NCBI GenBank assembly: GCA_963796685.1
Contig: CAWCMR010000025.1
Coordinates: forward strand, 1,920,001-1,984,000
Direction of reading: 5' to 3'
Source of the DNA: an uncultured delta proteobacterium
GTDB taxonomy: Bacteria > Myxococcota_A > Polyangia > Fen-1088
Length of the DNA stretch: 64,000 nucleotides
The stretch's first letter is position 1; each line of letters opens with the position of its first letter. The notes under the pieces are model-generated. The model ran no database searches. It saw only the letters and a program-made list of their open reading frames with translations, and was not told where the DNA came from. The translations under genes were made by a program, and so were the position numbers. Below are positions 5,727 through 39,083 of this stretch, one piece after another.

Positions 5727-5748
5727 TGTCAGTCCCCTGTGCCACCCT
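5727..5748 (+). promoter_or_regulatory. PafBC-type promoter motif, copy 1
   Basis: TGTCAG-TCCCCTGTGC-CACCCT, 8 nt before the in-frame GTG at 5757. Confidence 0.6.
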
Positions 5749-5756
5749 CGGCGATT

Positions 5757-6080
5757 GTGACCCTCGAAGAGCTCCGCAAGAAATTCTGGTGGCTTGGGCC
5801 AAGCCCGAAGGACTCCTACATCGTGGCTCTGGAGGGAGACACTGTGACCATCAAGGTGATCCAGTGCACCTGGAATCGCCGCACGCAGAAGTACGAGGAG
5901 GCGGTGGCGGCAGACTTCCGCGCACTGGGTTTGCAGGTGGTGTGGCAGCCATTCTTTTCGGAGAAGCTGCGCGCCGAGATCGAGAAGGCGCGCGAAAAGG
6001 ACGGCGCCAACTTCGACGAGGGAAGGTTCCTGGACGAGCAGCGCGCGGCGGAGGTCCGACGGGAGGCACGTGAGCGATGA
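5757..6080 (+). CDS. hypothetical protein
   Basis: Charged ~107 aa ORF with GC3-rich codons; start placed just downstream of the promoter motif. Confidence 0.6.
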   Translation: MTLEELRKKFWWLGPSPKDSYIVALEGDTVTIKVIQCTWNRRTQKYEEAVAADFRALGLQVVWQPFFSEKLRAEIEKAREKDGANFDEGRFLDEQRAAEVRREARER

Positions 6081-6110
6081 GCGTTGCGAGGCCGTCACCC
6101 CGCGCGCTGA

Positions 6111-6139
6111 TTGATGTCCACCCGCCAGACGCCTACAAT
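6111..6139 (+). promoter_or_regulatory. sigma70-type promoter for the WYL pair, probably leaderless
   Basis: TTGATG-N17-TACAAT, then 6 nt to ATG 6146. Confidence 0.6.
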
Positions 6140-6145
6140 GACGCT

Positions 6146-7243
6146 ATGGCGAGCAGGAAGCTGTCATCGCGGGTGGCGAGCGAAGATCGTTCGCGACAAC
6201 CGCCCGACGAGCGGATCCTGTCCTTGCTCATGCTGTTGCTCGAGGCGAATCGGCCCGTGTCGCGCGCCGAGATATTCCAGCGCATCGACGCCTACCGCAA
6301 GGTAAAACCGGCCGCGGCCGAGCGCAAGTTCGAGCGCGACAAGAAGGACCTGCGCACCCTGGGCGTGCCCATCGAAGAGCACGAGGAAAAGGGCCAGGAT
6401 GCGGAGCACCTGTACTGCGTTCGCAGGCGCGAGTACGAGCTGCGGCCGGTGCAGCTCGACGACGAGGAGCGAGTGGCGCTGATCCTGGCGGCCGAGGCGT
6501 TGCGCGGCACCGAGGGTCTGGTCTACGGCGAGCTGGTCGACGATGCCCTGCGGAAGCTGTCCTTCGACAGCGGCCGATCCCACCACGCCTTCACGCCCGC
6601 CAACCTTGGAATCATGCTGCCCTCGCGCGAGCACGGCGCGCGGCTGCGGCGCACGATGGCGGCCCTGGTCACGGCCATCGAGGGCCGTAAGCGCGTGACT
6701 ATCACCTACCCTTCGCCCGGCGGCGAGGCGACCGTGCGCGAGGTCGACCCGTACGCGGTCGTCTACTCGGGCGGCAACTGGCAACTGGTCGGCCACTGTC
6801 ACCTGCGCGACAAGCCGCGCACCTTCCGCGTCGACCGCATCGTCAAGGTCAAGCTGGCGCCCAAACCCGGCACCCCCGACTTCCAGCGCCCCGAGAGCTG
6901 GAACCTGGCGACCTACGTGCAGCGCTCGCCCTGGGTCTTCCAGGCCGGCGACACCCAGGCCGCATTCGACGTGGTGCTGGACATCGGACCCGAGCGCGGC
7001 TGGATGGCCGACGAGGACTTCGGCCCCGGCTCGTCGCGCGAGCCGCTGGCCCAGGCCGTGACCGGCGAGGAGGGCTGGACGCGCGTTCGCTTCCGCTCGG
7101 GCAACAGTGGCTACATCATCACGCGCGTGCTGGACGCCGCCGGGCACCTGTTGGTCGTCGAGCCGCGCGAGCTGCGCGCGCGCATCCGCGACATCACAGC
7201 CAGCATCGCTGCCGCCAACCGGACGGCAGGGGGTGCGCCATGA
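6146..7243 (+). CDS. PafB-like HTH-WYL-WCX transcriptional regulator
   Basis: ERKFERDKKDLRTLGVPIE (PafB-type HTH), REVDPYAVV..GNWQLVGHCHLRDKPRTFRVDRI (WYL), VVEPRELRARI (WCX). Confidence 0.9.
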   Translation: MASRKLSSRVASEDRSRQPPDERILSLLMLLLEANRPVSRAEIFQRIDAYRKVKPAAAERKFERDKKDLRTLGVPIEEHEEKGQDAEHLYCVRRREYELRPVQLDDEERVALILAAEALRGTEGLVYGELVDDALRKLSFDSGRSHHAFTPANLGIMLPSREHGARLRRTMAALVTAIEGRKRVTITYPSPGGEATVREVDPYAVVYSGGNWQLVGHCHLRDKPRTFRVDRIVKVKLAPKPGTPDFQRPESWNLATYVQRSPWVFQAGDTQAAFDVVLDIGPERGWMADEDFGPGSSREPLAQAVTGEEGWTRVRFRSGNSGYIITRVLDAAGHLLVVEPRELRARIRDITASIAAANRTAGGAP

Positions 7244-8245
7244 AGAAGCAAGAGCAGCGGCTGCGGCGCGCCCTGTACCTGGTGCCCTACGTGACCAAGC
7301 ACGAAGGTGGTGTGCGGCTGTCCGAGCTGGCGGAGATCGTTGGCGCCAAACCGGCCGAGCTGGAGAAGGAAATACGGGCGCTGCTCTACGTCGGCGTGCC
7401 GCAGGGATGCGACCACGTGAACATCTTCATCGACGGAAAGGGCCCTCAGGCGGTGGTTTCGGCCTTGCCGTGCCGGCTCTTGAACCGGCCGCCACGCCTG
7501 ACCACGCAGGAAGCGCTGGCCCTGCTCATCGGCGCCGAGGCCGTGAAGGCCACCGGGATACGCACCTACGAGGAAGCCATCGCTCGCGCCGCGAAGAAGA
7601 TCCGCGCGGCGCTCGGGCAGAGCGACAACGGGCTGGCCGGCGGGGATGGCATCGTCCTGGCCATGCCCGCCGCCGGCAAACAGAATGCGCTCGCCACGCT
7701 CTCCCGCGCGTGCCGCGAGCACCGCACCGTTGAGATGGACTACGCCTCGCTCTCGAGCCAGCACCGGCGCCCCGTCCGGCTGGAACCGTACGGCTTGCTC
7801 AACCACACCGGCGCCTGGTACGTGCTCGGCCGCAGCCTGACCCACCAGGAAGACTGCATCTTCGTCTTCAAGGTCGAGCGCATCCTCGGCGTCACCGTCC
7901 TTCCCACGACCTTCACCGTGCCCAAGGACTTCGACGTCAACAAGTACCGCGGCGACCGTATGTTCATCAGCGACTGGAAGCCCGCCAAGGTCACGCTCCG
8001 CCTGCGCGGGCCGGCGGCAGCGCGCATGCAGGGCTGGTTCGGGAAAGTCGGAGAAGCAGCGAGACGGCAGCCTGGTGGTTCACTTCAAGGACCACATCAC
8101 CGGCTGGCTGGCGGCGTGGGTGCTACGGCAAGGGGAGGGTGTGGAGGTCGTGGAGCCGGTGGAGTTGCGGGCGTGGGTGGGGCGGCTGGCGAAGAGGGTG
8201 GGGGAGGGGCACACCCGCACGTCCCTTCCTTGCCAAAGTGCCTGA
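7240..8245 (+). CDS. PafC-like WYL regulator, apparent +1 frameshift at ~8050
   Basis: RALYLVPYV, RPPRLTTQEALALL, LEPYGL..HTGAWYVLG...FKVERI; the WCX tail (GWLAAWVLRQGEGVEVVEPVELRAWV) continues in another frame from 8051 to TGA 8245. Confidence 0.85.
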
Positions 8246-10559
8246 GGAACTCCATGAGCACCCGCCGCTGTGCTCGGCTCGGCTCGTTGTTGGCGTTGGT
8301 CTTGGCCTCGACCAGCCGGTAGCCCCAGGGCGACGACTCGATCTGGATGGTCAATCCCCTGCCGGCGACCTCGCCGTGGTACAGGGCCGCCTTGCCGGTC
8401 AGCACATCGGGGATGCGGCTGGCGACGCAGTTGTGCATCTTGGCCCCCTCGGACAACATCTCCTCGAGCGTACGCAGGGGCATGATGACGTCGTCGCCCG
8501 ATCGCCATCCCGCGCAGGGCGGCTCGGGAAGCACCAGCTCCTTCCCGTCGGCATTGACGATCGGCTTGCCGATTGCCTGGGCGACGTCGGCCAGTTGCTG
8601 GAGTTGTGCCATCCGTTCGTGCCAGGCATCCACCGCCCCGATGTAGCGAGCAGGCGAGGTGCTCCGCCGTGGATAGTCATCCATGGCGACGGCGTAGTCG
8701 AGCATCTCCTGGATGCGCGATCGCACGGCGAAGCGTTTTCGCCAGCAAACCGCCAACGCGGCCGCATGGTGTGACACGAAGGTGGCGAAGTCTTCGCCGA
8801 GATCGGGGACGTCACAGCAGGGCGGTACCAGCGTGATGGTGTGGCCCTTCACCAAGCGGAACCAGCGCGCATTGGCCAGCTTCTTGGATGGGATGTCCTC
8901 GGGGGCAAAGCGTAGCGGGGGTGGCAGCCACAGCGTGTAGCTGGGCACGCCGGCGCCCGCTCGGCGGATGAGGAGGCGCTGGGCGCTCAGTATGGACCGC
9001 AGCTCGTGCGGGCTAGCGTCTACGAGGCGCCGCCAGAGCGGTCGCTGCCTCTCCGACAGGCGCGCGTCTTGTGCCAGCTTCGCAGCGCCAATGGCCCAAG
9101 CCGCAACGGCGTCATCGAGCGCATCGTTGAGCCCACGTCCGGCTACCACGTTTCGCAAGAGCTTCTCGCCAGCCGCTCTCGTGCCAGCGCGATGGCCGAG
9201 CGCCGACAGCGCGTAGGCGAAGGTCAGCGCGCCGGGACAGGTGTCTACGACCTGCGCCAGCCGACCGCTCTTGTCCTTGGCGAGCCTCGCGTATAGCCAC
9301 GGACGCATATGGTTCGGAAAGCGCAACGCGATCTTCCGTGCTGTAGGATCGAGCATGGCAGCGGCGCTGACCGCGGCTTGCCGAATGGCCGCGCGCACGG
9401 TGCGCATGGTTTCACCGAGGTTCCCCTGTCTGGCGTGTTTTCTGCCCCGCGCCCCGTGCGGATTGCGAGGGACCAGTGCGCAGAACACCCAGTAGCGAGC
9501 GGCGCGGAAGGGATCTTGATCCAACCGCGGCAGGCCAGCCGTCAGTGCCCAGCGCTCCGATGCCCATCCGGCCTGGCTGCGAACCTTCAGCGAGTAGCGC
9601 GGCTCGAGGCACAGGTCCAGCTCGAAGCGGGACGGCACGCGGCCCTGGTGGTCGGAACGGAGCTCGAGCAGCAGACGGTCCGGCCAGCGGCGCAGGCGCA
9701 TCTCGACCGAGCGGCAGTAGTAATGGAAGACGGCCGTCTTGATTTCGTCGGGCGGGCGCACGCCTGGGGCATCGGCCGGCCAGCGGCCTGGCGCCAGCGT
9801 CGCCCGCAGACGATAGCGGCAGCAAGGCACCAGCGCGCGCGCCGCCGCGATGTCCAGTCCGCGCCGGCCGAGGGACTCGCACAGCCGACGGACCATTGCG
9901 GGTTTCAGCGTGCCGCCCTGCGAATACGCGGCATGGACCAGTTGCTCGCCCAGGGCCTCGATGTCGACGGCGCTCTCCCAGGGGATGAACGTCAAGGCCA
10001 GGCTGGCCGCCTTCTCGACGGCGACGTCGTGCTCGCGCAGATGGCGCAGCAGGATCTCCCTACGCGTGTCGGCGCTCGGCGGCATGAGCTCGGCCATGAG
10101 GCCGTCCGGAAAAGATCGCGAGCAGAAACGCAGAAGCACGTTCCCCTGGCTGGCGTCCAGCGCCAACACCGTCAATCGGCCAGCCTCAGCCCGGTCGCAG
10201 AGCAGCCCCTTCAGCCGCTGCAGAGCTCGCCCTCCCAGGCCTGCCGGCTCGTCGAGAAGGAGCAGGTCGGGCTCGAGCTGGCCATCAAGGCTGTCCGCGA
10301 GGCGCAGGTCCGTGCCTGCCTTCAGAGGCACATTCATCGCGGGCGCCACCCGTAGGCACTCGGCCCGGATCGTGTCGAGCAACAGGGTCTTGCCAGCGCC
10401 CTGGACGCCACGAATCACCAGCGGGTTGAAGCGCGGTCGCCCCGACCGCGAGAGCATCTTCGCCGCCGACGCGGCAAAGTGATTCTCCGGCCCGATGACA
10501 AACCGGTCGAAGGTCAGTTGGACCGGTGCCGGAGCGACGAGCAGATCTGTGCCAGGCAT
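8097..10559 (-). CDS. DnaA-like AAA+ domain fused to a C-terminal PcfJ-like domain
   Basis: N-term TFDRFVIGPENHFA...FNPLVIRGVQGAGKT..LLLLDE; C-term PLRTLEEMLSEGAKMHNCVAS...LTIQI..EAKTNANNEP. Confidence 0.7.
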   Translation of the reverse strand: MPGTDLLVAPAPVQLTFDRFVIGPENHFAASAAKMLSRSGRPRFNPLVIRGVQGAGKTLLLDTIRAECLRVAPAMNVPLKAGTDLRLADSLDGQLEPDLLLLDEPAGLGGRALQRLKGLLCDRAEAGRLTVLALDASQGNVLLRFCSRSFPDGLMAELMPPSADTRREILLRHLREHDVAVEKAASLALTFIPWESAVDIEALGEQLVHAAYSQGGTLKPAMVRRLCESLGRRGLDIAAARALVPCCRYRLRATLAPGRWPADAPGVRPPDEIKTAVFHYYCRSVEMRLRRWPDRLLLELRSDHQGRVPSRFELDLCLEPRYSLKVRSQAGWASERWALTAGLPRLDQDPFRAARYWVFCALVPRNPHGARGRKHARQGNLGETMRTVRAAIRQAAVSAAAMLDPTARKIALRFPNHMRPWLYARLAKDKSGRLAQVVDTCPGALTFAYALSALGHRAGTRAAGEKLLRNVVAGRGLNDALDDAVAAWAIGAAKLAQDARLSERQRPLWRRLVDASPHELRSILSAQRLLIRRAGAGVPSYTLWLPPPLRFAPEDIPSKKLANARWFRLVKGHTITLVPPCCDVPDLGEDFATFVSHHAAALAVCWRKRFAVRSRIQEMLDYAVAMDDYPRRSTSPARYIGAVDAWHERMAQLQQLADVAQAIGKPIVNADGKELVLPEPPCAGWRSGDDVIMPLRTLEEMLSEGAKMHNCVASRIPDVLTGKAALYHGEVAGRGLTIQIESSPWGYRLVEAKTNANNEPSRAQRRVLMEFLRHFGKEGTCGCAPPPPSSPAAPPTPATPPAPRPPHPPLAVAPTPPASR

Positions 10560-10565
10560 GGGGAC

Positions 10566-10587
10566 AGAATGCGATGGGAGACTGACA
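10566..10587 (-). promoter_or_regulatory. PafBC-type promoter motif, copy 2
   Basis: TGTCAG-TCTCCCATCG-CATTCT-N6-ATG(10559). Confidence 0.7.
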
Positions 10588-10613
10588 GGAATTTTCGGAG
10601 ATGCGGTCCACCT

Positions 10614-12771
10614 TCAAAACCCGATCCGCCCCCGCGAGGTCGCCTTCACCCGAACCTCGGCCTCGATCTCGGCCAGCAATAGCTCGGCCGACACGGGCCG
10701 CCCACGGCCCGTCAAGCGCCGCTTCACCGCTGCGAAGTCGCCGGGGGCCAGGTTGGGGATGCGGGCGAGCGTGGATTCCACTGACGGCGAAACCTCGCCC
10801 GTGTAGCCGAGGTCGGCAAGCCCGCGGCGAAACGCCAGCAGGCTCTGCTCGGGCTTCAGAAAGCCGAGCTCGATCTTGAAGACAAAGCGGCGCAGCGACG
10901 CCGGGTCGAGCTTGTCGAACAGGTTGGTCGTGCAGGCGACCACGCCGGGGAATGCCTCGAGCTGCTGCAGGAACTCGTTGACCGCGGTCACCTCCCAGGA
11001 TCGCTGCGCGCCGGTGCGATCTTGCAGGAACGAATCCGCCTCGTCGAACAGCAGAACTGCTTCATCCCGCAGCGCGGACTCGAAGGCCGATGCGATGTTG
11101 TGCTCGGTGCCGCCGACCCACATGCTCAGAATGTCCGACGCGCGTTGGACGTCGAGCGGTCGCCCCGCCCGGTGCGCAAGGTACCGAACCAGCTCGGACT
11201 TGCCAGTGCCGGGCGGACCGTAGAGACACAGGGACACGCCCGCACCGTCGCCAGGTTGCCAGGTTTGGACCCGCCGCTCGACCTCCAGGAGATCGGCATC
11301 GGTGTTGACCAACTCGGGCAGGTAGCCGCCGGCGCGGAAGACCGGCGGGGCCATCCTGCGGCCGTGCAGCACGCGCTCGGCCGGTTTCAGGATGGTTTCC
11401 AGCGTACCCCGATCGATCGCCCCGTGCGACACGAGGCGCGCGGCCGACACCGCGGCACCGATGTGCGCCGGGCTCAGCTCGAAACGCTGGGCCAGCAGGT
11501 CCACGTCATCCGCAGGCAGGGTCGTATCGCTGCCCAGATGCTTGCGCCATGCCCGCCGGCGCTGCCCGGCGGTGAACTTGCCGACCTCGATGACGTAGGC
11601 GAAGCGCCGCAGGAACGCGGGATCGATGTCGTCCACGCGATTCGAGATCCAGATGGTTGGCACCGGGTTGGTCTCGAGCAGCAAGTTGAACCACTGCTTG
11701 GACATCGTACGTTGCTTGCGAGCAGCGTCGTCCTCGTCGCCCGTCACGCCCGCAAAGGGATTTCCCTGGAAAAGATCCTCGAGCTCGTCGAAGAGCAACA
11801 ACGCACGACCGTGAGACAGCAGCTTGTTGCCGAGCAGCAATGAACGTAGCCGCTGCTGCGACGTCGGCGACTCACCGGTGGAAGTCTCGCGCCCGGCCAC
11901 CATCAGCGACACGTCGAGCTTCTCCGCCGAGCAGGCGCGCCAGCTCGGTCTTTCCCGTGCCGGTTGGACCGTACACCAGCACGTTCACCCCGGCCTGTCG
12001 TGCGTCGAGCGCCGCGCGCAGGAGATTGCGCGCCGTTGCGACCTCGTTTCGCAGATGTGCGAAATCATCGGCCTCGAGTGACGACGCAGGCGCTGCCGGC
12101 AAGAATCGGTCGACGAACGCGGCCCCGTCGAGGCCGGGCGTGAACACGACGCCCTCGAGCCGTCTGTCGGCCTGGACTCGGTCATCGAGGTCACCGTGCT
12201 CGTTGAGCTCGATGAGCCCACTCGTCACCAGGCGGCTCTTGCGGTCGAGGACTGCGCAGACCGCGTCGGGTTTCTCGCCGGTGGCCGCCGCGATGAGAAT
12301 GCCGGGGCTGCGAAGCCCCACGCATGGGATCGGGTCGAGCAACTCCTGCATGTCACGACGGTTGGCAGCGATCGCGAATTGCAGGACGACGGCCTCGACT
12401 TGGTCCAGCCCGAGCGTACTCGCGATGACCTGCAGGCAGGCGGCCGCTGGTGCGCGCGGGGAAGCGGGCTTGCGGATCTTCTGCCCCCTCCGTTGCAGAA
12501 GTGACTGCAGCGCGCTGACAACCGCCTCGTCCATTCGCTTCTTGTTCGCCAGGGCTCTCCGCTCCGACGGCGTGGCGTTCCGTCCCACCAGCATGCGCAT
12601 GAGGCTCCGCTGATTGTCGACCATCATCTCGACGTGCTCCGGTATCAGCAGCGCGCCGGATGCCGCCAGGTTGTAGGCGTAGTCGAGCACGGTGTCGGTG
12701 AACGGGTCGGTCGCAGGGTCGATGACGTGATATCCCCTGCCCCGCCTTGATTTCTTGCATTGGTTGCACAC
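10614..12771 (-). CDS. tandem AAA+ ATPase, apparent +1 frameshift at ~11928
   Basis: Joins ORFs 11872..12789 and 10614..11912: YGPTGTGKT / LLFDELED / AFLRRF and YGPPGTGKS / LLFDEAD / ASLRRF; removing one G gives a single ~718 aa ORF. Confidence 0.85.
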
Positions 12772-12794
12772 GGTTCTGTCTCCCTTCACCAGCC

Positions 12795-12816
12795 AGAATG
12801 GCGCGTGGGTCTGACA
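12795..12816 (-). promoter_or_regulatory. PafBC-type promoter motif, copy 3
   Basis: TGTCAG-ACCCACGCGC-CATTCT upstream of the AAA ATPase. Confidence 0.7.
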
Positions 12817-12847
12817 TGATTTTTCCCTGCAGCACCAACGCAGGTCG

Positions 12848-12869
12848 TGTCAGACCCCTGTTCCATGAT
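12848..12869 (+). promoter_or_regulatory. PafBC-type promoter motif, copy 4
   Basis: TGTCAG-ACCCCTGTTC-CATGAT-N6-ATG(12876). Confidence 0.7.
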
Positions 12870-12875
12870 CAGCGC

Positions 12876-13484
12876 ATGATCATCGAGAACGACTCCTGCG
12901 ACGGGTTCACGCCCCCAACCCAGAGCCGCCTCTCCGTGAAGCGCGGCGGCCACCTCGTCATCCGCAAGTGGAACATCCCCAAGCCCGTGGTTCTGGTCGA
13001 CACGCGCGAGCAGGCGCCCTGGCCCTTGCACGAGAACCACCCGAGCTGGATCGGCGGCGAGAAGCGCGTCGCCTTGCCCGCCGGCGACTACTCCATCGAG
13101 GGCATGCAGGACCTCCTAGCCATCGAGCGCAAGACCCTGCCCGACGTCGTTCGCAGCACCATCGGCAACCGGGCGCGCTTCCTGCGTTCGTGCGAGCGCC
13201 TGGCGAAGCTACGCTGGAAGGCGATCCTGATCGAGGCCACCTACGAGGAGATGAAGCTTCCGTACAGCGAGACCATCGGTCCCGAGACCCAGGCGCACCC
13301 GAACGCCGTGCTCGGCACGCTCGATGCCATCGAGGCCAGGCTCGGGATCCCGGTCATCTACACCTCGCAGATCGCCGACCTGGCCACCGAGCGCGCCGCG
13401 AGCTGGCTGTCCAAGCACTTCACCTACTGGTGGCTTGAGCAGCACGGCCATGGCCGCGTACTGGACGATGAGGATGGGCTGTAG
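12876..13484 (+). CDS. ERCC4-domain nuclease
   Basis: VLVDTREQ..LPAGDYS..AIERKT..D....GNRARF. Confidence 0.85.
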   Translation: MIIENDSCDGFTPPTQSRLSVKRGGHLVIRKWNIPKPVVLVDTREQAPWPLHENHPSWIGGEKRVALPAGDYSIEGMQDLLAIERKTLPDVVRSTIGNRARFLRSCERLAKLRWKAILIEATYEEMKLPYSETIGPETQAHPNAVLGTLDAIEARLGIPVIYTSQIADLATERAASWLSKHFTYWWLEQHGHGRVLDDEDGL

Positions 13485-13487
13485 ACG

Positions 13488-30648: not shown

Positions 30649-30667
30649 GGCCTCAGAGCACTCCGGT

Positions 30668-30787
30668 CCCCTCGCCCCGCGTAGCGGGGAGAGGGTTAGG
30701 GTGAGGGGACGTGGCTGTGGGCGGAGAGTGGCGCCCCTCACCCGCCGCGCTTCGCGCGTCGGCCTCTCCCCGCTGCGCGGGGCGAGG
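30668..30787. repeat. pair of inverted REP-like palindromic elements
   Basis: CCCTCGCCCCGC-GTA-GCGGGGAGAGGGTTAGGGTGAGGGG and an inverted related copy CCCCTCACCC...CCTCTCCCCGC-T-GCGCGGGGCGAGG. Confidence 0.7.
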
Positions 30788-30816
30788 CGATTTCTGGTGC
30801 AGATACGACCTGGGCA

Positions 30817-33609
30817 TCAGTTCACTCTCGGCAGCAGGACGTAGAGGCCGATCACGTCGGCGGGAAGCAGTGCCTTCACGGTGTACTTGCCGAGGGCTTG
30901 GGAGGCAACGCGAACTCGGCGATGATCCTCGAGCAGAGCATCGGCCCGACTTCTTGCAAAGGATTCGAGATCGCCGGTGTGGTCGGCAAGCCACGCCAGG
31001 GCTTGTTCGAGGGTTCGGCGGCGCACGTGCGCGGGCGGATCGCTAACCGGCGGAGGAAGCAGCAACGCCAGGGCCTCCGCGCCCTGATGGATTGCACCTG
31101 GCGAGGATCCCCAAGCCATCGCGGTCGCTTCCTCGACTAGCAGGTCGCTCGTGCGCGCGGCCTTCTGCGTTTGCAGCTGGTGGCGCAAGCGCACGAGAGC
31201 CACAATGGTCCTCTCGCTCACGGTCGATGAGACCCAGCAACCGGCGCGGCCGAGCACGGATGGATCCGCCCCACCTTCCGTCACGGCTTCGGCCAACGAA
31301 CGCTCAAGCAAGGATTCGGCCAGCACGGAGACCAGGGGATGGCTGCGAAGGACCGGCCGACAGCGAGGCGCGGGAGGGATCTGGAAATCGATCAGTACGT
31401 TGCCAGACAGTCCCTCCACTTCCAGGCGCTCTTTCACCTCACCGGGCAGGGCCGCAAGCGGAGCCTTGAAGCCTCGACGAAGTGCTTCGAGGCCGGCGCC
31501 CAGACGTGCGAGCGCCCGGCTGGTGAAGCGCTGTACGTCTTCCTTGCCGCCGACCGCGGCCAGGGTCTTCTTCCACTCAGGCAGCACCTCGTCGGGCTTG
31601 AGGCGCCGCTGTGCGAATTTTGTGAGGTTGCGCTTGGCATTGTCGGCGGCATTTTGCCAGCAGTCGTCCATGGCCTTGCCTTCGGCGGACGAAGTGAAAT
31701 CCATCACCATCTGTTTCCCGTCGCCACGACCACGCAAGATCACCGCGCGCATCAGGGTCTGGGTCAGCGTATGGCCATCGTCCGGCAACGGCACCGGCAC
31801 GCCCAGCTCCTCTTTGATCTTGGCGGCCTTGCGCAGGATGACCTCGAGCACCGCACCATCGACGGGATTGTTCGCGCCGTACATCAGAGTGGTGCGCACG
31901 ACCTCGGCGTTCTGGCCAAAGCGGTCGACCCGGCCTTCGCGCTGTTCGTGACGGGTCGGGTTCCAGGACAGGTCGTAGTGGACGACGGCATCGAAGTGCT
32001 GCTGCAGGTTGATGCCCTCAGAAAGACAGTCGGTGGCGATGAGCAGCCGGCCGTGCTCAGCCTCGGCGAATTCTTCAACCTTTGACTCACGTTCCTCGGA
32101 TGGCATCACACCGGTGATGACCTCGACCTTTGCTTTGCCAAATCGGCTTTTGAGGTGGTCGCCGAGGTAGTGGGCGGTGGCGATATAACGGCAAAAAACG
32201 ATGGGGTTGAATCCGTCGTCGAGCAGCTTGCCGAGATGCTCGGTCAGAAGCTTCAGCTTGGGGTCGCCCGCCTGTCCGGCCAGGTGCTCAGCCTGATCGA
32301 TGAGTTTTGCCAGAGCTGGATCGTCCGCGGCTGCGGGGGGCTCGACGTCGTCATCGGGTAGCGAGTCGCTGGTGCCGTCGAATAGGCGGTCGCTCAAGGA
32401 TTCTTCGTCGAGGGCCTCGTCGTCGAGGCCGGCGCGCGAGCGCAGGGCCTGGCGGGCAGCGGCGGGGCTGGAGGCCACACAGCGCATGAGCGCCAGGGTG
32501 CCCCAGAAGTTGAGACGCTGGCGGCGCTCGTCCGGTCCGGCGCGCCCGACCACGTCGGCACAGTAATCCAGAACGGAGCCGAAGAATTTCTCCCATGCGC
32601 CGGTCAGCCGATAGGTCAGCTCTTTGGTCTCGCGGCGAGCAAAAAGCTTGCCCTCTTGCCATTCCGAGATATCGGGACGGCGGCGCTGGACGAAATGCTG
32701 GGACAGGCGGTCGCGTAGCCGCACACGGTCGTCCCCCGTCGCGGCCGCGAGGTTCGCGAAATCCCGATCGAGCAAACCGAGCAGCCGAAAGAACGCCTCC
32801 TCGTCGCCACTGTGAGGGGTCGCGGTGAGCAGGACCATGTGGCGGCTGGGCGAGTCCGCCAGCGCACGCAACAGCTCGTGCCGCTGGTGGCGGCCCTGGC
32901 CCGTAGACGCACAGGTGTGGGCCTCGTCGACGATGACGAAGTCCGGACAGGTCTGCAGAAAGAAGTGCCGGCGCGCCTCGCTCTTGATGTAGTCGAGGCT
33001 GACGACGGTGTGGTGGAAAGCTGTGAAGATGCTCTCGCCGGGTGGGATGCCGTTCTCGAGACGCTTGGCATTGGCAGCGGTCACGCCCACGGCGTGAATG
33101 TGGAAGTGCACATCCAGCTCGCGCACCCATTGCTCTACGAGATGCGGGGGACAGAGCACGGACGTGCGATCAATTTCGCCGCGGTCGAGCAGCTCGCGCG
33201 CAATCAGCGCACCCTCGATGGTCTTGCCCACGCCGACGTCGTCGGCGATCAGCAATCGCACGGTGTCCTGCTTGAGAGCCATCAGGAGCGGCACGAGCTG
33301 GTAGGCGCGCGGCTCGACGCTGATCTGGCCGAAGCTGCGGAAGGGGCCTGCGCCCCGGCGGAGCGAGAGCAGCAAGGCATCGCGCAGCAGGAGTGCGGCG
33401 TCTTGGCTGCCTTGCTGATCAAGCCGGGGAGGCGGAAAGTTGGCATCGCTGATCGGCTCGGTTTCGAGCCCAAGGTGGATGAGGGTCTGGTCGTCTTCTG
33501 ACCCAGTGACGGGCCGGACGTGCAAGACTTCCGCGTCGCTGCCCGCCATGACGATCCACTCGCGGCCACGTGCGAGAACCAGGCTGCCGGGGCCCCAGGT
33601 GGCGCTCAT
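30817..33609 (-). CDS. SNF2-family helicase (DrmD-like)
   Basis: PRAYQLVPL, LLIADDVGVGKT, VDEAH, LLTATPH, SEGINLQ, WNPTRHEQREGRVDRFGQ. Confidence 0.9.
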   Translation of the reverse strand: MSATWGPGSLVLARGREWIVMAGSDAEVLHVRPVTGSEDDQTLIHLGLETEPISDANFPPPRLDQQGSQDAALLLRDALLLSLRRGAGPFRSFGQISVEPRAYQLVPLLMALKQDTVRLLIADDVGVGKTIEGALIARELLDRGEIDRTSVLCPPHLVEQWVRELDVHFHIHAVGVTAANAKRLENGIPPGESIFTAFHHTVVSLDYIKSEARRHFFLQTCPDFVIVDEAHTCASTGQGRHQRHELLRALADSPSRHMVLLTATPHSGDEEAFFRLLGLLDRDFANLAAATGDDRVRLRDRLSQHFVQRRRPDISEWQEGKLFARRETKELTYRLTGAWEKFFGSVLDYCADVVGRAGPDERRQRLNFWGTLALMRCVASSPAAARQALRSRAGLDDEALDEESLSDRLFDGTSDSLPDDDVEPPAAADDPALAKLIDQAEHLAGQAGDPKLKLLTEHLGKLLDDGFNPIVFCRYIATAHYLGDHLKSRFGKAKVEVITGVMPSEERESKVEEFAEAEHGRLLIATDCLSEGINLQQHFDAVVHYDLSWNPTRHEQREGRVDRFGQNAEVVRTTLMYGANNPVDGAVLEVILRKAAKIKEELGVPVPLPDDGHTLTQTLMRAVILRGRGDGKQMVMDFTSSAEGKAMDDCWQNAADNAKRNLTKFAQRRLKPDEVLPEWKKTLAAVGGKEDVQRFTSRALARLGAGLEALRRGFKAPLAALPGEVKERLEVEGLSGNVLIDFQIPPAPRCRPVLRSHPLVSVLAESLLERSLAEAVTEGGADPSVLGRAGCWVSSTVSERTIVALVRLRHQLQTQKAARTSDLLVEEATAMAWGSSPGAIHQGAEALALLLPPPVSDPPAHVRRRTLEQALAWLADHTGDLESFARSRADALLEDHRRVRVASQALGKYTVKALLPADVIGLYVLLPRVN

Positions 33610-36600
33610 TGCGGCTTACCCAACGCGGCAGAAAGGCGGCGGAAGGGCTCAGCCCATGTGGACTCGGGACCGTCGAATGCGATCAGCTCGAAGCCGCGGG
33701 ACACAAGGGCGGTTGTGACCGCTTCTGCGGGCCGGCCGAGGATTGCGGCTACGTAGTGTGTTCGCCAGACGAGGGTTAGCCTCGTGTCTCCGACCACCAG
33801 CGGTTCAGTATCCGGAGCGGGCAGCTCCCTCGTGCGCGCGAGATCGATCCACCGCGCCAGACCGGGATCCGCGGGCGCGGGGGCGGCGGCTACTACCGGT
33901 GGATTCTCCAGAACGTTGGTGCGCGAACGAGCGAGCCTGAGCAGAAACTCGCGCGCCTGCTGGTCGCGGCGGTCGAGAAGCTCGTGGTCAGGCTGGTTGT
34001 AGTACGACATCAGGCACTTGTAGCAGGCAGCGACGCAGGCCGTACCTGGGGCGTCGGCCAGCAGCCTCTCCTCGGCGGGGGCACGTGAGCGATCCTCGAT
34101 ATCGAAGTGCATGATCTCGAGCGCCTTCCATGCGACCTCGGCCAGAGCAGTGGGCTCGGCCACCAGGCGGGTGAGCACGCCCGCGCCACCCTCGGTGGCT
34201 TCGTAGAGCAGGAAGCTGCTCCGCTCGTCCCGCGCCGGCATGGGCTCGGCCAGGACTTCCCCGGATTCAAGCTGGAAGACCAACTCGACACCGCGAAGGA
34301 GCGCGTGCTGAATCGTGGCCAGTGCCTTCGGGCTGGCGTCCTCGAGGTGTGGGCGCAGCAAGAGCGCGTTCTTGTGGTCGCGCACGCAGGGAACGATCCA
34401 CTGGCGCGGCTTGGCCGTGGGATCGGGCTGGTCGTCGCCGTCGTCCTCGTCTTTCGCCCAGAAACCGTGGATGGGATCGATGCAGAAGCCGAAACGGGTA
34501 CGGTCCGCCCGACGGCGCAGCCCCTTGTTGAGGCGCGTGATGGTCGCGCCGGGGCCGTAGGTCAGGTACGCGACCTCGCCGTCCTGGTCCAGTGCGGCGC
34601 CGCGCCGGACGTCGGGTACGTGGTCGCGCATGGCCCAGACGTAGGTCGTCTGCAGCTCGAAGCCCTGGCGTTTGCGCTCCTCGTCGTTGGCCGTGATCCG
34701 CTCGGCCTGCTGGGTAGCGACGTTCTCGATGCGATAGATGTTGCGAATGACCTCGCCGTCACCAAGAGGTGCCTGGCAGCAATGGCACAGGGAATCGTCG
34801 AGATTGAAGTGGCCGGCCCCGCACTCCTTGCAGATGCGAACGGATTCCACCGGCAAGTTGCTGTCCGCCGTGACGGCCTCACGGCGGCCAAGGGACAGCA
34901 TCGCCCTGACGACGCGATAGGCGCGACCTTCGTGGTACACGAGGCTGCGCGGACCGAACTCGGCCAGAGCCAGAAAGCGCGGTCGCTGTAGGCAAGTCTG
35001 GCGGCCCTTGCCATCGCCGGTCGAGGGGACGAAGGCCATCAGGGGCAGGCGTGGAAAGTTGTAGCCAGGTAGGAAGCCCTCGGTAGCGAGATAGCGGTAG
35101 GTGTAGAAGTCGCTCGACTGGCTGCTGGTGCCCTTCTGCAGGAGGTCGAGCAGCTCCAGCGCCTGCGCGTGCCGGCTTCTGGCGGCGTTCTTCTCTTTCT
35201 GCGGGGCCGAGTAGTCGTCCATCGTCCGGCGAGCAGCATCTCGCTGCATCTCACCCGCCACGAATAGCTCGCGCCAACGCTTGAACGCTTCCTTGAATCG
35301 TTCCAGGGCATTGCCCGCGATGGCCGTGGCGAAGTCGTCGCGGCCGGGATACCAGGGGGCAAGCGCCGGCGTCAGATGTTCACTGAGAAGATCGAGCACA
35401 TGCTTGATGCGTTCGGCGGCCTCTTGCACGACCCGCGGCTCCGCGAGCGGGGCGAGCACCTCAGCCCGCAAGGGGCGGGCTGGATCGTTCAGGACCAAAA
35501 GCTGCGAAATGGCCGCGTCGAGCGGTTGCTCGGTGCAGGCCAACCAAACCGCGTGAAGGTGGCTCTCGACCAGCTCTCGATTGGCAAGGTCCAGCGAGGG
35601 TGGGCGGACCTCGCCGTGCACCATCTCTTTCGGTCGTTGGAAGAAGTACTGGTCGTGCGGGCCCTGGGCCGAGCAGTAGGTGAGGGCGAGCGCGCCCTGG
35701 CCGCTACGGCCAGCACGGCCGCTGCGCTGGGCGTAGTTCGCCGGGGTGGGTGGGACGTTGCGCATGTACACGGCGTTGAGCGCCGCGATGTCCACGCCCA
35801 GCTCCATGGTCGGAGAGCAGAAGAGGACCGGCAAGAAGCGGTTCGCCTCTCGGAGCTCGCGCAGACGCTTCTCGTCGGCGGCCAGCTCGCGCTGCTCTTT
35901 GTCGCCGAACCGGAAACGTTTCTCGCGGATCTCGCGCCGATCGCCATCGACCTGCGCGGTGTGCTCGCGCGCCTCGAACCCAAACAGCGGGTGGCCCGGC
36001 TGCCTGAGCATCTCGGCCAGCGTGGCGTAGAGATCACGGAAGAAGGCGTGTTGGTTGCGCTGCGCGGGCGTCACTTCGGGCGTCGCCGCGCGGAAAACGA
36101 CGGCGTCGGCGTTGAGCCTCCAACCTGTCTGCCCGAACGGTGTGACTTCCTCGGAGACCAGGCCGTGCTTCGAGGCGGCCGCCAGGAGGTTACCCATCAG
36201 CGCATCCAGCTCGGGCGCCTTGATGGCGCGGATTGACCGATCGCCACCCCAGAGCTCGGATGACTTCAGAACACGGCCAAGGGCGCTACGGGACCCGCCT
36301 CGTGCGATGAGATCTTCATCGCGTAGACGAATGTCATCGCGGGCCGGCGCATTCACCATCAACCATCGGGCGGAAGCTGGCTTCTCGTCCGGGCCAAAGC
36401 CCCAAGGAACGCGCAGCCGGTTGTGCGATCGTTCCTGCATCTGGCCGATGGTGATCGTGTCGAGGACCTGGCTGCGAACCGCCATTCCCTTGCGCAGGTG
36501 ATTGAAGATCTGGCAGTAGACGCCGGCTCGGACCTCCGGCGTTGCGTTTCTGAGGATGGCGGGGGCGTCGGCGAACAACCCTTCATCCGCGCACAGGTCC

Positions 36601-38915
36601 TGGAGGCCCAGATAGTCAACCGCGAGCAACCCAAGCTGTTCGAGGTTGGGGTTGGTGAACCGCCAGCCTCGACGCTGGTCGAACCAAACCCGGTAGGCCA
36701 GCACCTGCCGCAGCGTGGATTCGGCTTCTTGCAGATTGAAGCCGCGAAGATCCGGCTCCTGCAGCCACTCGCCGCGAATGGCTGGGCTCGGCCGGTCGAA
36801 ACCCAAGGCAACTTGCTGGGCACTGCCAAGCTGATCGTTGCGCAAGCCGGTGGTCCCGGCCGCCTGGACGGCGCCGAGAAAACCAGCCCGGATCAGACTG
36901 ACGAAGAGGAAATCGTTGAAGTGACCCGACTGCAGAGCCGTGTCCTGACGGTTGTCGGAAAACCCGAGCAGCTTGCGTTTCCATGGATCGAGGCCGGAGT
37001 CCGCGCCGTGCATCCAGCGCAAGGCGCTCGCGACCAGAACCGTGGTGGCCGAGCTGCGACCTTCCGCGGAAAGAGATGCGAGGCGGTTGCGGTCCTTTCC
37101 CGCCCGGCCTTGCGTTGTTCCACAGCGAAGACAGAAGCGGAACTTGCCAGGGAGAAACCACGCTCGGATTCCCGCGCCGATTCTTCCCGTCGGCTCGACG
37201 AAGTACTCGCGCGCCCGAGCCTTGCGATAGGTCGACTTCAGACGTGGGCGCCCCTTCTTGTCGTAGTCGAGCCAGGTTTCGGGATAGTCCTCTTCGTGGT
37301 TCTCGAATTCGAACCCTTCGTCCGCGCCGTGCGGGGTGATGAATCCCAGGATGTCGCGATCGTCGTTTCCGTCCGCCACATCCGCGTCGGCGGCGTCATC
37401 CTCGGGCCGGACGGGGATCGCGTCGTCGATGTCGCGCGAGACGAATATCCTTTCGCCGTTGATGACGGTGAAGCGAACCGGGTGGTACTCATGGCCACAG
37501 TCCCGGCAGAAATGCACCGGGTAGAGACGCTTGTCGTGGGCGCCCGGGAGAAAGACCTGGCCATCCGCCGTGACCACCCGGCGGCCGGGAGCCTCCAGCG
37601 TCGCGAAGGCATTGCCGGCGCCAGAAATGAACTGATGCAGCTTGAAGGCGAAGAAGCTGCGCCCGCTGGCACCGGGTGCGTGGGTGCGCTCGTCTTCCGG
37701 AATGCTCGAGACAAGGAGCAAATCGCGCAGGGCGCGGCGGCAAGCGGCTGGGGTTCGAGAGGAATCCTGGCAGAGTGTTTCGACGGCCTCGGAGACCGTG
37801 AGCGGCTTGGCGCGCACCCACCGCTGGTCAGGATCGGAAAAGCAGATGCCCAGACGAGTTTCGACCCAGACGGCGAGAGGGTGCGTCCGAAGCTGCGCGT
37901 CCGTGATGTTCTGCGGAATCCCGGCATCGACCGCAGGCCCCAGACGCGGGCGCACGGACTCTGGAGTGAGGTCCGGATCCGTGACTCGGTCGAGGGTTTC
38001 GACGACGATATTGCTTTCCGGGATCGCCACAGAGAAGAGCTTCGAAGCCACCTCGGCCACCTTGCGATTCTTGTCGACGAGCGTGCCCTCGCTGGCCATG
38101 GTCGCTGAGGTGCCGATGCACTGTAGCCGCTCGGGCGACAACCTTTCGCGCACTCGGCGCACGAGCAGCGCGACGTCCGCGCCTTGGCGTCCCCGGTAGG
38201 TGTGGAGCTCGTCGAGCACCAGGAAACGCAGCCCGGCGCAGTTGCCGATCACGCGGCGGTCGAGCGCATCCTGACGGGTCATCAGGAGCTCGAGCATCAT
38301 GAAGTTGGTGAGCAGAATGTCCGGCGGGTTCTGCGAGGTCGCCTCTCGCTCGTCGGTGTCTTCCTGGCCCGTGTAGCGCGCGAAGGTGACCGGAGCCGGG
38401 CCCTGGACGTTCTCGACGTACTTCTTCAGCTCCTCTTCCTGGCTATTGGCCAGCGCGTTCATCGGGTAGATGACGATGGCCCGCGTGCGCGGCCGCGGGT
38501 CTTGTCGTCTCTCGGCAAGGACCGCGTTCACGATCGGGATGAAGAAGCAGAGGGATTTCCCGGAGCCGGTGCCCGTGGTGACCACGTAGCTCTGGCCTTG
38601 GGAGGCGAGCGCGATGGCTTGCTGCTGGTGCTTGTAGAGCTCAAGCGGAGCGCCTCGACCTGCACCGGCGGTGGGCTGGCCACGGAAGATGTCCGCACAG
38701 CGCGCATCGAGGGCTCCTTGCTCGACCAGCTTGTCGACCGTCGTCGACCGACGGTAGTTGGGGTTCACCTGGATGAGCGGTTCCGGCCAGTAGCGGTCGC
38801 TCGCGTAGATTGCCTCGACTTGCCGCCGAATGTCCTCGGCATGGATGCTGGTGAAGGATGTCGCGAACTTCTTGTATTCGTCGACGACAAACTCACGCAG
38901 CGAAAAGACGTCCAT
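33606..38915 (-). CDS. giant DEAD/DEAH helicase with C-terminal DUF1998 (YprA-like)
   Basis: TTGTGSGKS, YPMNALANSQ, LDELHTYRGRQG, SPTMELGVDI, NYAQRSGRAGR, YEATEGGAG, CVAACYKCL; start ATG 38915 (or 38930). Confidence 0.9.
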   Translation of the reverse strand: MDVFSLREFVVDEYKKFATSFTSIHAEDIRRQVEAIYASDRYWPEPLIQVNPNYRRSTTVDKLVEQGALDARCADIFRGQPTAGAGRGAPLELYKHQQQAIALASQGQSYVVTTGTGSGKSLCFFIPIVNAVLAERRQDPRPRTRAIVIYPMNALANSQEEELKKYVENVQGPAPVTFARYTGQEDTDEREATSQNPPDILLTNFMMLELLMTRQDALDRRVIGNCAGLRFLVLDELHTYRGRQGADVALLVRRVRERLSPERLQCIGTSATMASEGTLVDKNRKVAEVASKLFSVAIPESNIVVETLDRVTDPDLTPESVRPRLGPAVDAGIPQNITDAQLRTHPLAVWVETRLGICFSDPDQRWVRAKPLTVSEAVETLCQDSSRTPAACRRALRDLLLVSSIPEDERTHAPGASGRSFFAFKLHQFISGAGNAFATLEAPGRRVVTADGQVFLPGAHDKRLYPVHFCRDCGHEYHPVRFTVINGERIFVSRDIDDAIPVRPEDDAADADVADGNDDRDILGFITPHGADEGFEFENHEEDYPETWLDYDKKGRPRLKSTYRKARAREYFVEPTGRIGAGIRAWFLPGKFRFCLRCGTTQGRAGKDRNRLASLSAEGRSSATTVLVASALRWMHGADSGLDPWKRKLLGFSDNRQDTALQSGHFNDFLFVSLIRAGFLGAVQAAGTTGLRNDQLGSAQQVALGFDRPSPAIRGEWLQEPDLRGFNLQEAESTLRQVLAYRVWFDQRRGWRFTNPNLEQLGLLAVDYLGLQDLCADEGLFADAPAILRNATPEVRAGVYCQIFNHLRKGMAVRSQVLDTITIGQMQERSHNRLRVPWGFGPDEKPASARWLMVNAPARDDIRLRDEDLIARGGSRSALGRVLKSSELWGGDRSIRAIKAPELDALMGNLLAAASKHGLVSEEVTPFGQTGWRLNADAVVFRAATPEVTPAQRNQHAFFRDLYATLAEMLRQPGHPLFGFEAREHTAQVDGDRREIREKRFRFGDKEQRELAADEKRLRELREANRFLPVLFCSPTMELGVDIAALNAVYMRNVPPTPANYAQRSGRAGRSGQGALALTYCSAQGPHDQYFFQRPKEMVHGEVRPPSLDLANRELVESHLHAVWLACTEQPLDAAISQLLVLNDPARPLRAEVLAPLAEPRVVQEAAERIKHVLDLLSEHLTPALAPWYPGRDDFATAIAGNALERFKEAFKRWRELFVAGEMQRDAARRTMDDYSAPQKEKNAARSRHAQALELLDLLQKGTSSQSSDFYTYRYLATEGFLPGYNFPRLPLMAFVPSTGDGKGRQTCLQRPRFLALAEFGPRSLVYHEGRAYRVVRAMLSLGRREAVTADSNLPVESVRICKECGAGHFNLDDSLCHCCQAPLGDGEVIRNIYRIENVATQQAERITANDEERKRQGFELQTTYVWAMRDHVPDVRRGAALDQDGEVAYLTYGPGATITRLNKGLRRRADRTRFGFCIDPIHGFWAKDEDDGDDQPDPTAKPRQWIVPCVRDHKNALLLRPHLEDASPKALATIQHALLRGVELVFQLESGEVLAEPMPARDERSSFLLYEATEGGAGVLTRLVAEPTALAEVAWKALEIMHFDIEDRSRAPAEERLLADAPGTACVAACYKCLMSYYNQPDHELLDRRDQQAREFLLRLARSRTNVLENPPVVAAAPAPADPGLARWIDLARTRELPAPDTEPLVVGDTRLTLVWRTHYVAAILGRPAEAVTTALVSRGFELIAFDGPESTWAEPFRRLSAALGKPQ

Positions 38916-39004
38916 GCTCTTGAGTGTCATGTGGTGACCCTGGTTTCGGCAGACGGTGGGGCGCAGTAGGACCGAGGCGCACACGCGACACCTCAATCGT
39001 GATG

Positions 39005-39026
39005 AGCGTATCACGGCGGACTGACA
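39005..39026 (-). promoter_or_regulatory. PafBC-type promoter motif, copy 5
   Basis: TGTCAG-TCCGCCGTGA-TACGCT heading the long defence operon. Confidence 0.7.
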
Positions 39027-39061
39027 CGAAGTGCTCGAGTTCGAGACGAGCGTACAATCCA

Positions 39062-39083
39062 TGTCAGACCCGCGCGGTAGGGT
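39062..39083 (+). promoter_or_regulatory. PafBC-type promoter motif, copy 6
   Basis: TGTCAG-ACCCGCGCGG-TAGGGT upstream of ATG 39111. Confidence 0.7.

Follow-up and report, generated by a model that had tools for sequence, protein, structure and literature searches.

To our knowledge, PafBC has so far been described as the master DNA-damage activator of actinobacteria, with its mechanism solved only for mycobacterial RNA polymerase. The published PafBC promoter reads tGTCgg(N10)tA(N3)T, in which GTC is read by residues R46 and R50 of PafB (PMC8635444); in mycobacteria, adnAB and lhr are among the genes named as PafBC-controlled, with adnA being exclusively PafBC-dependent (PMC8682763), and PafBC abundance is reported as unchanged in the DNA-damage response (PMC12288472). 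Here we analyse a 64,000-nucleotide (nt) stretch of DNA from an uncultured delta proteobacterium (positions 1,920,001 to 1,984,000 of contig CAWCMR010000025.1, assembly GCA_963796685.1; hereafter "the window"), in which a genomic island carries adjacent genes for a PafB-like and a PafC-like protein together with six copies of a matching promoter motif, TGTCAG-N10-YANNNT. The best reading of this locus, in which we place moderate confidence, is that of an island-borne adaptor-activator switch of the PafBC type.

Set against the actinobacterial system as presented in PMC8635444, PMC11804915, and PMC6789036, the window locus resembles PafBC in that (i) the genes are adjacent, B then C, each encoding a winged helix-turn-helix (wHTH)-WYL-WCX protein whose best solved-structure matches are PafB and PafC, (ii) the promoter has two parts and no −35 element, a GTC-containing element standing exactly 10 nt upstream of a −10-like hexamer, (iii) the base-reading Arg pair is found in the B subunit only, with the WYL arginines conserved, and (iv) an AddAB/AdnAB-type helicase-nuclease is found among the putative targets, as is a large DExH helicase. 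The locus differs from PafBC in several respects. The pair lies in a diderm host lacking Pup ligase and WhiB, on a tRNA-Ala/integrase island and not beside pafA; its candidate regulon is local (six sites, all in the island), as opposed to the ~150 genes of mycobacterial PafBC; the element reads TGTCAG, is flanked by conserved bases (C at −1, WCCC on the other side), and is paired with a mostly C-initial hexamer; and the regulator genes are themselves preceded by the motif, their operon holding a small additional open reading frame (ORF).

Other WYL-domain regulators provide further points of comparison. DdaA of the Moraxellaceae is a WYL activator of DNA-repair genes and of anti-phage systems (restriction-modification, CRISPR-Cas) after DNA damage (PMC12392091; also PMC13010146). 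Activator-type WYL control of defence genes is thus already published, and the contrast drawn by an earlier sequence-only reading of this DNA, between the window pair and the repressor-type WYL proteins of defence islands, is less novel than stated. Unlike the window pair, DdaA is the product of a single gene, forms a homodimer, and binds a palindromic CGWCA-N5-TGWCG site about 50 bp upstream of where transcription begins; it is also chromosomal and lineage-wide, and its authors consider sigma adaptation improbable (PMC12392091). DriD of Caulobacter is likewise a wHTH-WYL-WCX activator, switched on by single-stranded DNA (ssDNA) in a damage response independent of SOS, but acts as a homodimer on a palindromic CGAC-N7-GTCG site and is not island-borne (PMC9186387, PMC10853764). 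CapW and BrxR share with the window pair a location inside defence islands, and CapW senses ssDNA; however, they are described as homodimeric repressors of adjacent operons acting at palindromic operators (PMC9122588, PMC9122601, PMC11662680). Finally, MXAN_1359/1360 of Myxococcus xanthus, a former deltaproteobacterium, is an adjacent, DNA-damage-linked wHTH-WYL pair, which is reported only as LexA-regulated and with no function assigned (PMC12288472). A full-text literature search, covering main texts and not supplements, returned no paper on PafBC-type regulation, promoters, or sigma adaptation outside the actinobacteria.

Pattern search of the window recovered exactly the six TGTCAG-N10-YANNNT sites that the sequence-only reading had listed, on the strands it gave; all six are intergenic and each is oriented into an ORF. 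Only 0.30 copies would be expected (standard deviation 0.58), and none of 100 shuffles reaches six. The bare hexamer TGTCAG is not enriched (19 vs 27.8 expected), and the 13 remaining window copies all lack YANNNT at N10, which bears out the earlier remark that other TGTCAG hits have no −10 hexamer. Across the whole genome (7.31 Mb in 26 contigs, 64.6% GC), there are 25 strict matches, six of which fall in the island, and the longer signature TGTCAG-W-C-Y-C occurs among these 25 only in the six island copies. At a background rate pooled from seven genomes (170 motif hits in 43 Mb, true sites included), the island would hold 0.20 copies vs the six observed (P about 8e-8). The observation itself is confirmed. 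Genome-wide counts against a reversed-pattern control were 27 vs 11 in G413, 53 vs 20 in G430, 17 vs 14 in G418, 23 vs 21 in G425, and 10 vs 16 in G401; the motif signal is one of local clustering with no genome-wide excess. Four sites outside the island (C25:785656, C25:956040, C9:18988, C8:491113) are strict or near-strict matches with leaderless geometry, lying before ORFs for a histidine kinase, a PSD/PSCyt-domain protein, and two proteins without a family, none repair-related; these were considered as regulon members and treated as chance.

The geometry of the six putative hybrid promoters is as follows. The first (5727-5748, plus strand; TGTCAG-N10-CACCCT) has a GTG 8 nt past the hexamer and points into the small ORF, the pafB-like gene, and the pafC-like gene. 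It lies outside the likely antitoxin gene, as the opposite ORF (5164-5802) has its Phd/YefM domain only in residues 124-188. The second (10566-10587, minus strand; CATTCT hexamer) precedes a gene for an 820-amino-acid (aa) protein with ATG 6 nt past the hexamer. The third (12795-12816, minus strand; also CATTCT) precedes a double-AAA+ ATPase with GTG at 5 nt, for which a later GTG behind GGGAG is an alternative start. The fourth (12848-12869, plus strand; CATGAT) precedes an ERCC4 nuclease with ATG at 6 nt, and the fifth (39005-39026, minus strand; TACGCT) a defence-like module with TTG at 8 nt. The sixth (39062-39083, plus strand; TAGGGT) precedes an AddB-like gene and is the sole window site with a 27-nt leader, which carries a Shine-Dalgarno-like run (GGGAGAAGG) before ATG 39111. 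Leaderless geometry had been ascribed to two copies; ATG at 6 nt does hold for 10587- and 12848+, but the count is too low, since in-frame starts of long ORFs stand 5-8 nt past the hexamer at five of the six sites. The earlier description of 12816-/12848+ and 39026-/39062+ as two back-to-back divergent pairs holds.

Aligning these six sites with 14 more from related loci (20 strict sites from eight loci) reveals conservation beyond the searched pattern. The base two positions before TGTCAG (position −1) is C in 19 of 20 sites (P about 7e-9), the base directly after it (+7) is W in 19 of 20, +8 is C in 16 of 20, and −3 is T in 14 of 20, in keeping with the extended consensus proposed earlier. 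Positions −1, +7, and +8 fall outside the search pattern, so their conservation is independent of it, and all six window sites retain every conserved position. Start codons lie 5-11 nt past the hexamer at 16 of the 20 sites by an automatic criterion; 8931+ in locus L031, whose small ORF carries an in-frame stop, was added by hand. In the two positions of an extended −10 "TG", 8/20 sites have T and 13/20 have G. A sigma-70 consensus scan detected no −35/−10 promoter at any of the six window sites. The reverse of TGTCAG, CTGACA, was considered as a −35 element for the opposite strand and rejected, given that its flanks hold no −10-like hexamer 16-18 nt beyond, and the scans concur.

This promoter architecture bears directly on the possibility of repression, in which the WYL pair, or the PafB-like protein alone, would bind TGTCAG within the spacer of weak −35-less or extended −10 promoters and block polymerase until released by ssDNA, as for CapW/BrxR. 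WYL regulators beside defence genes are usually repressors (PMC9122588, PMC9122601, PMC11662680), a protein bound at −23 to −28 would occlude RNA polymerase, and two of the six window sites (5727+ and 39026-) have the extended −10 "TG", such that some could fire without a −35 element. The other four, however, have neither a −35 nor a TG extension, which leaves little for unaided polymerase to recognise, and exact spacing from the −10 is not required for repression. Moreover, the element consists of one asymmetric half-site, held at a constant 10 nt from the hexamer, with no palindromic operator, and is accompanied by two different subunits instead of the single-gene homodimer of the CapW/BrxR type. 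The nearest solved relatives of the pair, PafB and PafC, are also far ahead of CapW/BrxR-type chains, for which Protein Data Bank (PDB) matches to the PafB-like protein stand at 1e-4 to 6e-3. We thus judge repression unlikely and favour activation of the PafBC type.

The putative activator is encoded by two adjacent paralogous genes. The first, pafB-like (6146..7243, plus strand), encodes a wHTH-WYL-WCX protein (Pfam WYL 3.2e-22, WCX), with the longest ORF from 6077 giving protein P0001 of 388 aa. The second, pafC-like (7240..8245, plus strand; P0002), has HTH_PafC (Pfam, 7e-21) and WYL (1.5e-15) domains, with its WCX part in another frame; the WCX is intact in the homologues from L018, L019, and L031. 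The best solved-structure matches of P0001 are to Mycobacterium smegmatis PafB (9fnd_X, 2.7e-20; 7p5x_AY, 3e-20), vs 1.2e-6 for PafC and 1e-4 or weaker for other WYL chains. Among PDB entries, P0002 comes closest to the PafC half of the fused PafBC from A. aurescens (6sj9; 40.8 bits, vs 24.5 bits for the PafB half), with 3.2e-7 against M. smegmatis PafC and 4.2e-6 against PafB. The earlier assignment of a PafB-like gene followed by a PafC-like one thus stands, with the addition that the latter is frameshifted here.

Residues reported in PMC8635444 and PMC11804915 were mapped onto a HMMER alignment of P0001. P0001 retains equivalents of R8, A43, R46, R50, K52, R56, and Y76, as well as of the ssDNA-binding arginines R181, R204, R208, R211, and R214, and differs at S40 and E42. 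All retained residues bar R8 are invariant in 14/14 clade members; the R8 equivalent is Arg in 13 of 14, with one gap. This includes R83 and R87 of P0001, which align with the base-reading R46 and R50 of M. smegmatis PafB. By inspection, the aligned helix 3 of P0002 has no R-x-x-x-R pair. Complex prediction with the intact L018 pair gave a score of 0.71 (best control 0.00), a mark attained in 58 of 80 solved complexes and in 2 of 110 mismatched pairs, with runs agreeing on at least 77% of contacts and a partner pLDDT of at least 75. This pass may only reflect likeness, because PafBC complexes have already been solved. The predicted L018 interface includes the C-terminal WCX helices, i.e., the part that lies behind the frameshift in the window's pafC-like gene. 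As the pair's neighbours are island genes, no linkage to pafA or a Pup-proteasome locus was found. We classify the pair as a putative PafBC-like variant, not as PafBC proper, because it shares the architecture, the similarity, the arginine pair, and the promoter geometry, the last being equal to the published tGTCgg(N10)tA(N3)T (PMC8635444), while lacking the pafA linkage, the actinobacterial host, and W70.

Relatives of the locus, gathered by homology to P0001 and not by motif, show that the motif travels with the pair. Of 36 same-family genomes, 6 have a close pafB-like homologue (49-66% identity), 2 of them among the 12 of the same genus; such homologues also occur on three metagenome contigs. 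Some 65 metagenome protein clusters also match at 48% identity or more, many of which the Joint Genome Institute calls "proteasome accessory factor B"; only distant homologues bear the names Kofleriaceae and Deltaproteobacteria. No relative turned up when viral contigs were scanned with the PafB-like alignment. The related loci (L018-L021, L031-L035; 101.7 kb) hold 14 strict motif copies vs 0.40 expected (P about 2e-17). The motif recurs upstream of orthologues. It stands before the small ORF-pafBC unit in 6/6 loci having at least 62% identity and upstream DNA (the window, L018, L019, L020, L031, L032), before the PcfJ-like gene orthologue in L018 and L031, before the double-AAA ATPase orthologue in L031 (copy 3212+, followed by an identical leader), and before an AddB-like/AddA-like pair in same-genus G413. 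L021, on too short a contig, does not enter the count of loci with the small ORF-pafBC unit. Further motif-preceded cargo consists of a DUF2779 protein (L018), a DnaB_C-like ATPase (L032), and an ADP-ribosylglycohydrolase (L034). The divergent partner site in L019 has the hexamer TATGAA. The cis-regulatory family tied to a mobile PafBC-like pair is real and well supported, and we infer its function. Its conserved core of candidate targets consists of repair-type genes (AddAB-like, AAA ATPase, PcfJ-like), to which the defence-like operon has been added in the window island.

These same loci speak to whether some other factor, such as an alternative sigma factor or another island protein (e.g., the small ORF product), reads the motif while the WYL pair only travels along. 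Binding by the pair is predicted only, and the small ORF stands directly behind one motif copy in six loci. Yet no genes other than pafB-like and pafC-like are shared by every motif-bearing locus, and L033 and L034 carry motif copies without a small ORF homologue. No sigma-factor domain was found among 50 scanned window ORFs, nor among the partly scanned ORFs of the relatives' loci, and the GTC core fits the arginine pair conserved in helix 3 of the PafB-like protein. Recognition by another factor is therefore very improbable, and we retain the pair itself as the presumptive reader.

Several observations at the relatives' loci merit separate mention. In G425 (L035, 6980-18000), recC-recB-recD directly follows a pafB-like/pafC-like pair of 49% identity, with TGTCAG-N8-TAAAAT followed 7 nt on by the recC GTG start; a core repair operon may here have a promoter of the same type with altered spacing. 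In G418, a genome that carries the pair, four further motif sites with the C-R prefix are found on other contigs (L041, G418:C127, 640-1041; L044, G418:C130, 2447-2468). Two of these have ATG 5-6 nt past the hexamer, and their ORFs, 402 and 110 aa long, match no Pfam family; the sites probably mark additional members of the regulon. In G413 (L031, 8960-9290), the reading frame of the small-ORF homologue is interrupted by a stop codon at the place of a Trp in the window protein (...VIQCTWNRRT...). Distant pafB-like matches are common in the phylum, occurring in 16 of 401 genomes, including 6/6 in one family, with the pairs in tandem; these may be chromosomal counterparts such as the LexA-regulated M. 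xanthus WYL pair.

Within the same 400 bp, a second promoter provides an internal contrast. A sigma-70-type promoter (TTGATG-17-TACAAT; 6111..6139, plus strand) was detected by the consensus scan 6 nt before ATG 6146, and L018, L019, L020, and L031 have the same layout (TTGAC/TG, 17-18 nt, TACnnT, 6 nt, ATG/GTG) at the corresponding position; a regular-expression search for it found none in L021 or L032-L035. This is the probable basal promoter of pafB-like, and the start of the gene is most likely at 6146, on a leaderless mRNA, so the start chosen in the sequence-only reading is probably right. Conservation that would appear as N-terminal protein conservation in the longest pafB-like ORF is conservation of this promoter. 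Given its retention, the arrangement of −10, 6 nt, and start codon evidently works in this lineage. Judged by layout, the TGTCAG promoters retain that −10/start geometry and swap a −35 at 17 nt for TGTCAG at 10 nt, which is the same relation as that between canonical and PafBC promoters in mycobacteria.

The switch that we favour would operate as follows. The two adjacent wHTH-WYL-WCX proteins would pair as a heterodimer, in which the PafB-like subunit reads a single, non-palindromic (C-R-)TGTCAG(-W-C-C-C) element centred ~26 nt upstream of the transcription start, and the PafC-like subunit, with no arginine pair in helix 3, touches region 4 of the housekeeping sigma factor. RNA polymerase could then use −35-less promoters with a −10-like hexamer (mostly CAnnnT) exactly 10 nt downstream, a mode equivalent to the "sigma adaptation" solved for mycobacterial PafBC, and most of these promoters would yield leaderless mRNAs with the start codon 5-8 nt past the hexamer. 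A nucleic-acid signal, probably ssDNA arising from DNA damage or from phage or plasmid attack, would turn on the dimer via the arginine-lined WYL groove. Basal regulator would be supplied by the canonical TTGATG-17-TACAAT promoter, with the TGTCAG promoter before the small ORF giving positive feedback. The targets would be of an end-resection/repair type (AddAB-like, ERCC4 nuclease, double-AAA ATPase, PcfJ/DnaA-like ATPase), with the DISARM/Dpd/Druantia-like helicase-SNF2-methylase operon as an extra target in the window island. The motif, its enrichment and conservation, its co-occurrence with the gene pair, the residue conservation, and the island status are all observed in the sequences; binding, activation, the signal (including ssDNA sensing), heterodimer formation in vivo, and sigma adaptation are what we infer.

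A number of findings weigh against this account. At the promoters, the first base of the hexamer is C in 17/20 strict sites, vs the T of a consensus −10. Among relatives, L033 and L034 (54-58% identity) have no strict motif before the pair itself, L035 has only the variant with N8 spacing, and 12 distant B-C pairs (L002-L012, L017; 29-41% identity by tblastn) have no motif within ~1.5 kb, nor could a shared motif of any kind be seen by eye before them. In the proteins, the position of the wing-tip Trp W70, which docks into sigma region 3/the β flap in M. smegmatis PafB (PMC11804915), is Q107 in P0001 and Trp in 0/14 clade members, with the loop alignment being uncertain; at the place of the WYL tyrosine Y196, which ssDNA binding requires in M. 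smegmatis (PMC11804915), 14/14 have Q, L, H, or V. The missing W70 and Y196 equivalents set the window pair apart from PafBC, and RNA polymerase docking and the ligand may therefore differ from the mycobacterial case. The two helix-3 arginines are common to other WYL regulators (PMC12392091), so the arginine pair alone is no proof of PafB-type binding. The Pfam HTH_PafC model was rejected as a membership test, as it also matches controls from E. coli, B. subtilis, Thermus, and Deinococcus.

The remaining points against concern the integrity of the window copy. The pafC-like gene is frameshifted near 8027-8046, in or beside a GGGAAAG run and before the WCX helices, with the WCX read on in a different frame as far as 8245; the intact homologues from L018, L019, and L031, used as tblastn queries, align to the window in two frames. 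The AAA ATPase is split near 11920, vs a single, 86-88% identical ORF of 719 aa in L031, and a DrmMI-like methyltransferase is frameshifted at 28813-29150. All three frameshifts fall within 21 kb of island. If the pafC-like one is real, the switch is broken in the window island, which raises the prospect of a relic, i.e., of a system that is real in relatives and has here decayed to an inoperative state. Besides the three frameshifts, which are judged against intact homologues, an insertion sequence (IS) element with a DDE transposase splits McrBC, and the in-frame stop in the G413 small ORF indicates that decay occurs in the family. Conversely, the six promoter sites keep every conserved position, and the assembly is a metagenome-assembled genome (MAG), so single-base indels may be assembly errors, the pafC-like one falling in or near GGGAAAG. 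The three frameshifts are either assembly indel errors or gene decay. A decayed copy is less likely than not, and it is compatible with the PafBC-type reading.

The island itself spans 51.4 kb (3719..55141), between a TPP-riboswitch/thi operon and a tRNA-Ala. Its extent follows from the closest same-genus genome, G403, in which the flanks match (window 658-3718 at 90.7% and 55142-57052 at 95.0% identity) and are split only by an unrelated 4.3 kb, with homology resuming exactly at the tRNA. The left boundary rests on synteny only, as no direct repeat (att) of >12 nt was found linking the tRNA-Ala region to any other part of the window. On the left, the thi operon extends up to 3644, its riboswitch (Rfam) at 3531-3644; on the right, a tyrosine integrase gene (53944-55122, plus strand; Pfam Phage_integrase 6.4e-11) adjoins the tRNA-Ala(cgc) at the island edge (55143-55216, minus strand; ARAGORN, Rfam). 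The sequence-only reading is supported in that the region is a true insertion island and the motif accompanies the pair in other genomes. Beyond the island, an ~85-nt element at about 57054-57141 has tens of copies in each of 13 same-genus genomes searched, with head-to-tail arrays of period about 81-84 nt in G402; it looks like a dispersed REP/MITE-like or array-forming repeat.

Gene content was assigned from Pfam, NCBIfam, and PADLOC scans of 50 island and flank ORFs. A Phd/ParE toxin-antitoxin pair (4835-~5440) precedes the small conserved ORF (5757..6080, plus strand; 107 aa), which is family-less in Pfam and NCBIfam scans, has 66-90% identical homologues in L018-L020 (tblastn), and gave no usable hit in an ESM Atlas search. 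The 820-aa protein (8097..10559, minus strand) has a DnaA/Hda-like ATPase N-terminus (Pfam Bac_DnaA 9e-11) and a PcfJ-like C-terminus (7.9e-05, below the Pfam family cut-off); it is 69% identical to its L018 and 47% to its L031 counterpart, and ESM Atlas gave only DnaA/Hda-like leads (0.81 or below). Its 3′ end converges with that of pafC-like (8097-8245), the two overlapping by up to 149 nt, and its final ~37 residues have no counterpart in the L018 homologue. The double-AAA+ ATPase (10614..12789, minus strand), with an IetA-like second domain, is split into ORFs of 305 and 432 aa. The ERCC4-family nuclease (12876-13484, plus strand; Pfam ERCC4 4.7e-09), with a weak NCBIfam Hef nuclease match, is followed by an M78/IrrE-like peptidase (13488-14300, plus strand; Pfam Peptidase_M78 3e-05).

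The interval 14661-26643 holds an HNH gene, McrC and McrB genes with an IS transposase between them, and HNH, RhuM, and YhcG-type genes. The transposase (DDE, 17823-19559) separates McrC-like (16113-17402) from the Mrr_N-AAA_5 McrB-like gene (19641-22148), which probably reflects the entry of an IS into a type IV restriction system. The co-directional defence-like module (26640..38996, minus strand) comprises (i) a 1796-aa DExH helicase with an MrfA Zn-binding domain, DruE/DpdJ-like (PADLOC DruE 8e-90), (ii) a 930-aa SNF2 helicase, DpdE/DrmD-like (DpdE 7.9e-191), and (iii) a DrmMI/type IIG-like methyltransferase (DrmMI 3.5e-36). Divergent from it are the AddB/AdnA-like protein of 1064 aa (PD-(D/E)XK) and the AddA/AdnB/RecB-like protein of 1081 aa (UvrD helicase plus PD-(D/E)XK) (39111..45547, plus strand; Pfam), for which NCBIfam recB/addA matches are below cut-off. 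Downstream (45977-47835), a phosphoribosyltransferase-domain protein and then a DprA/SLOG-like protein match the PADLOC PsyrT/PsyrA and ShosT/ShosA models, without a TGTCAG promoter. With respect to the defence, anti-restriction, and repair content first proposed, repair-type genes and a defence-like operon are present, but no anti-restriction family was found among the 50 scanned ORFs.

The host assembly is a MAG (26 contigs, 88.6% complete, 6.5% contamination). It has seven Omp85-family matches, and neither WhiB nor a Pup ligase was found at that completeness, from which it follows that the host is not an actinobacterium, in agreement with the initial suspicion, and, on these sequence markers, is a diderm. 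LpxC was not found in the MAG either and is not counted either way with regard to a diderm envelope.

If confirmed, the switch proposed here would mean that the PafBC mechanism works with a distant housekeeping sigma factor in a diderm host, and that it can move among genomes as a package. The locus family also provides a compact natural promoter set for dissecting the −26 element (20 strict copies at eight loci, plus five more on three other contigs), as well as a testable case of an inducible, rather than derepressed, defence-like operon. Tentatively, we extend this to the proposal that sigma adaptation is not restricted to actinobacteria, and that a heterodimer with −26/−10 promoters and mostly leaderless targets may constitute a self-contained mobile cassette, inducible by damage or invasion in diderm hosts, into which islands plug cargo (including the DISARM/Dpd/Druantia-like operon) via a 22-nt promoter. 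Ultimately, the presence of a PafBC-like pair with matching promoters on one and the same island suggests that this mode of gene switching is not confined to the actinobacteria.

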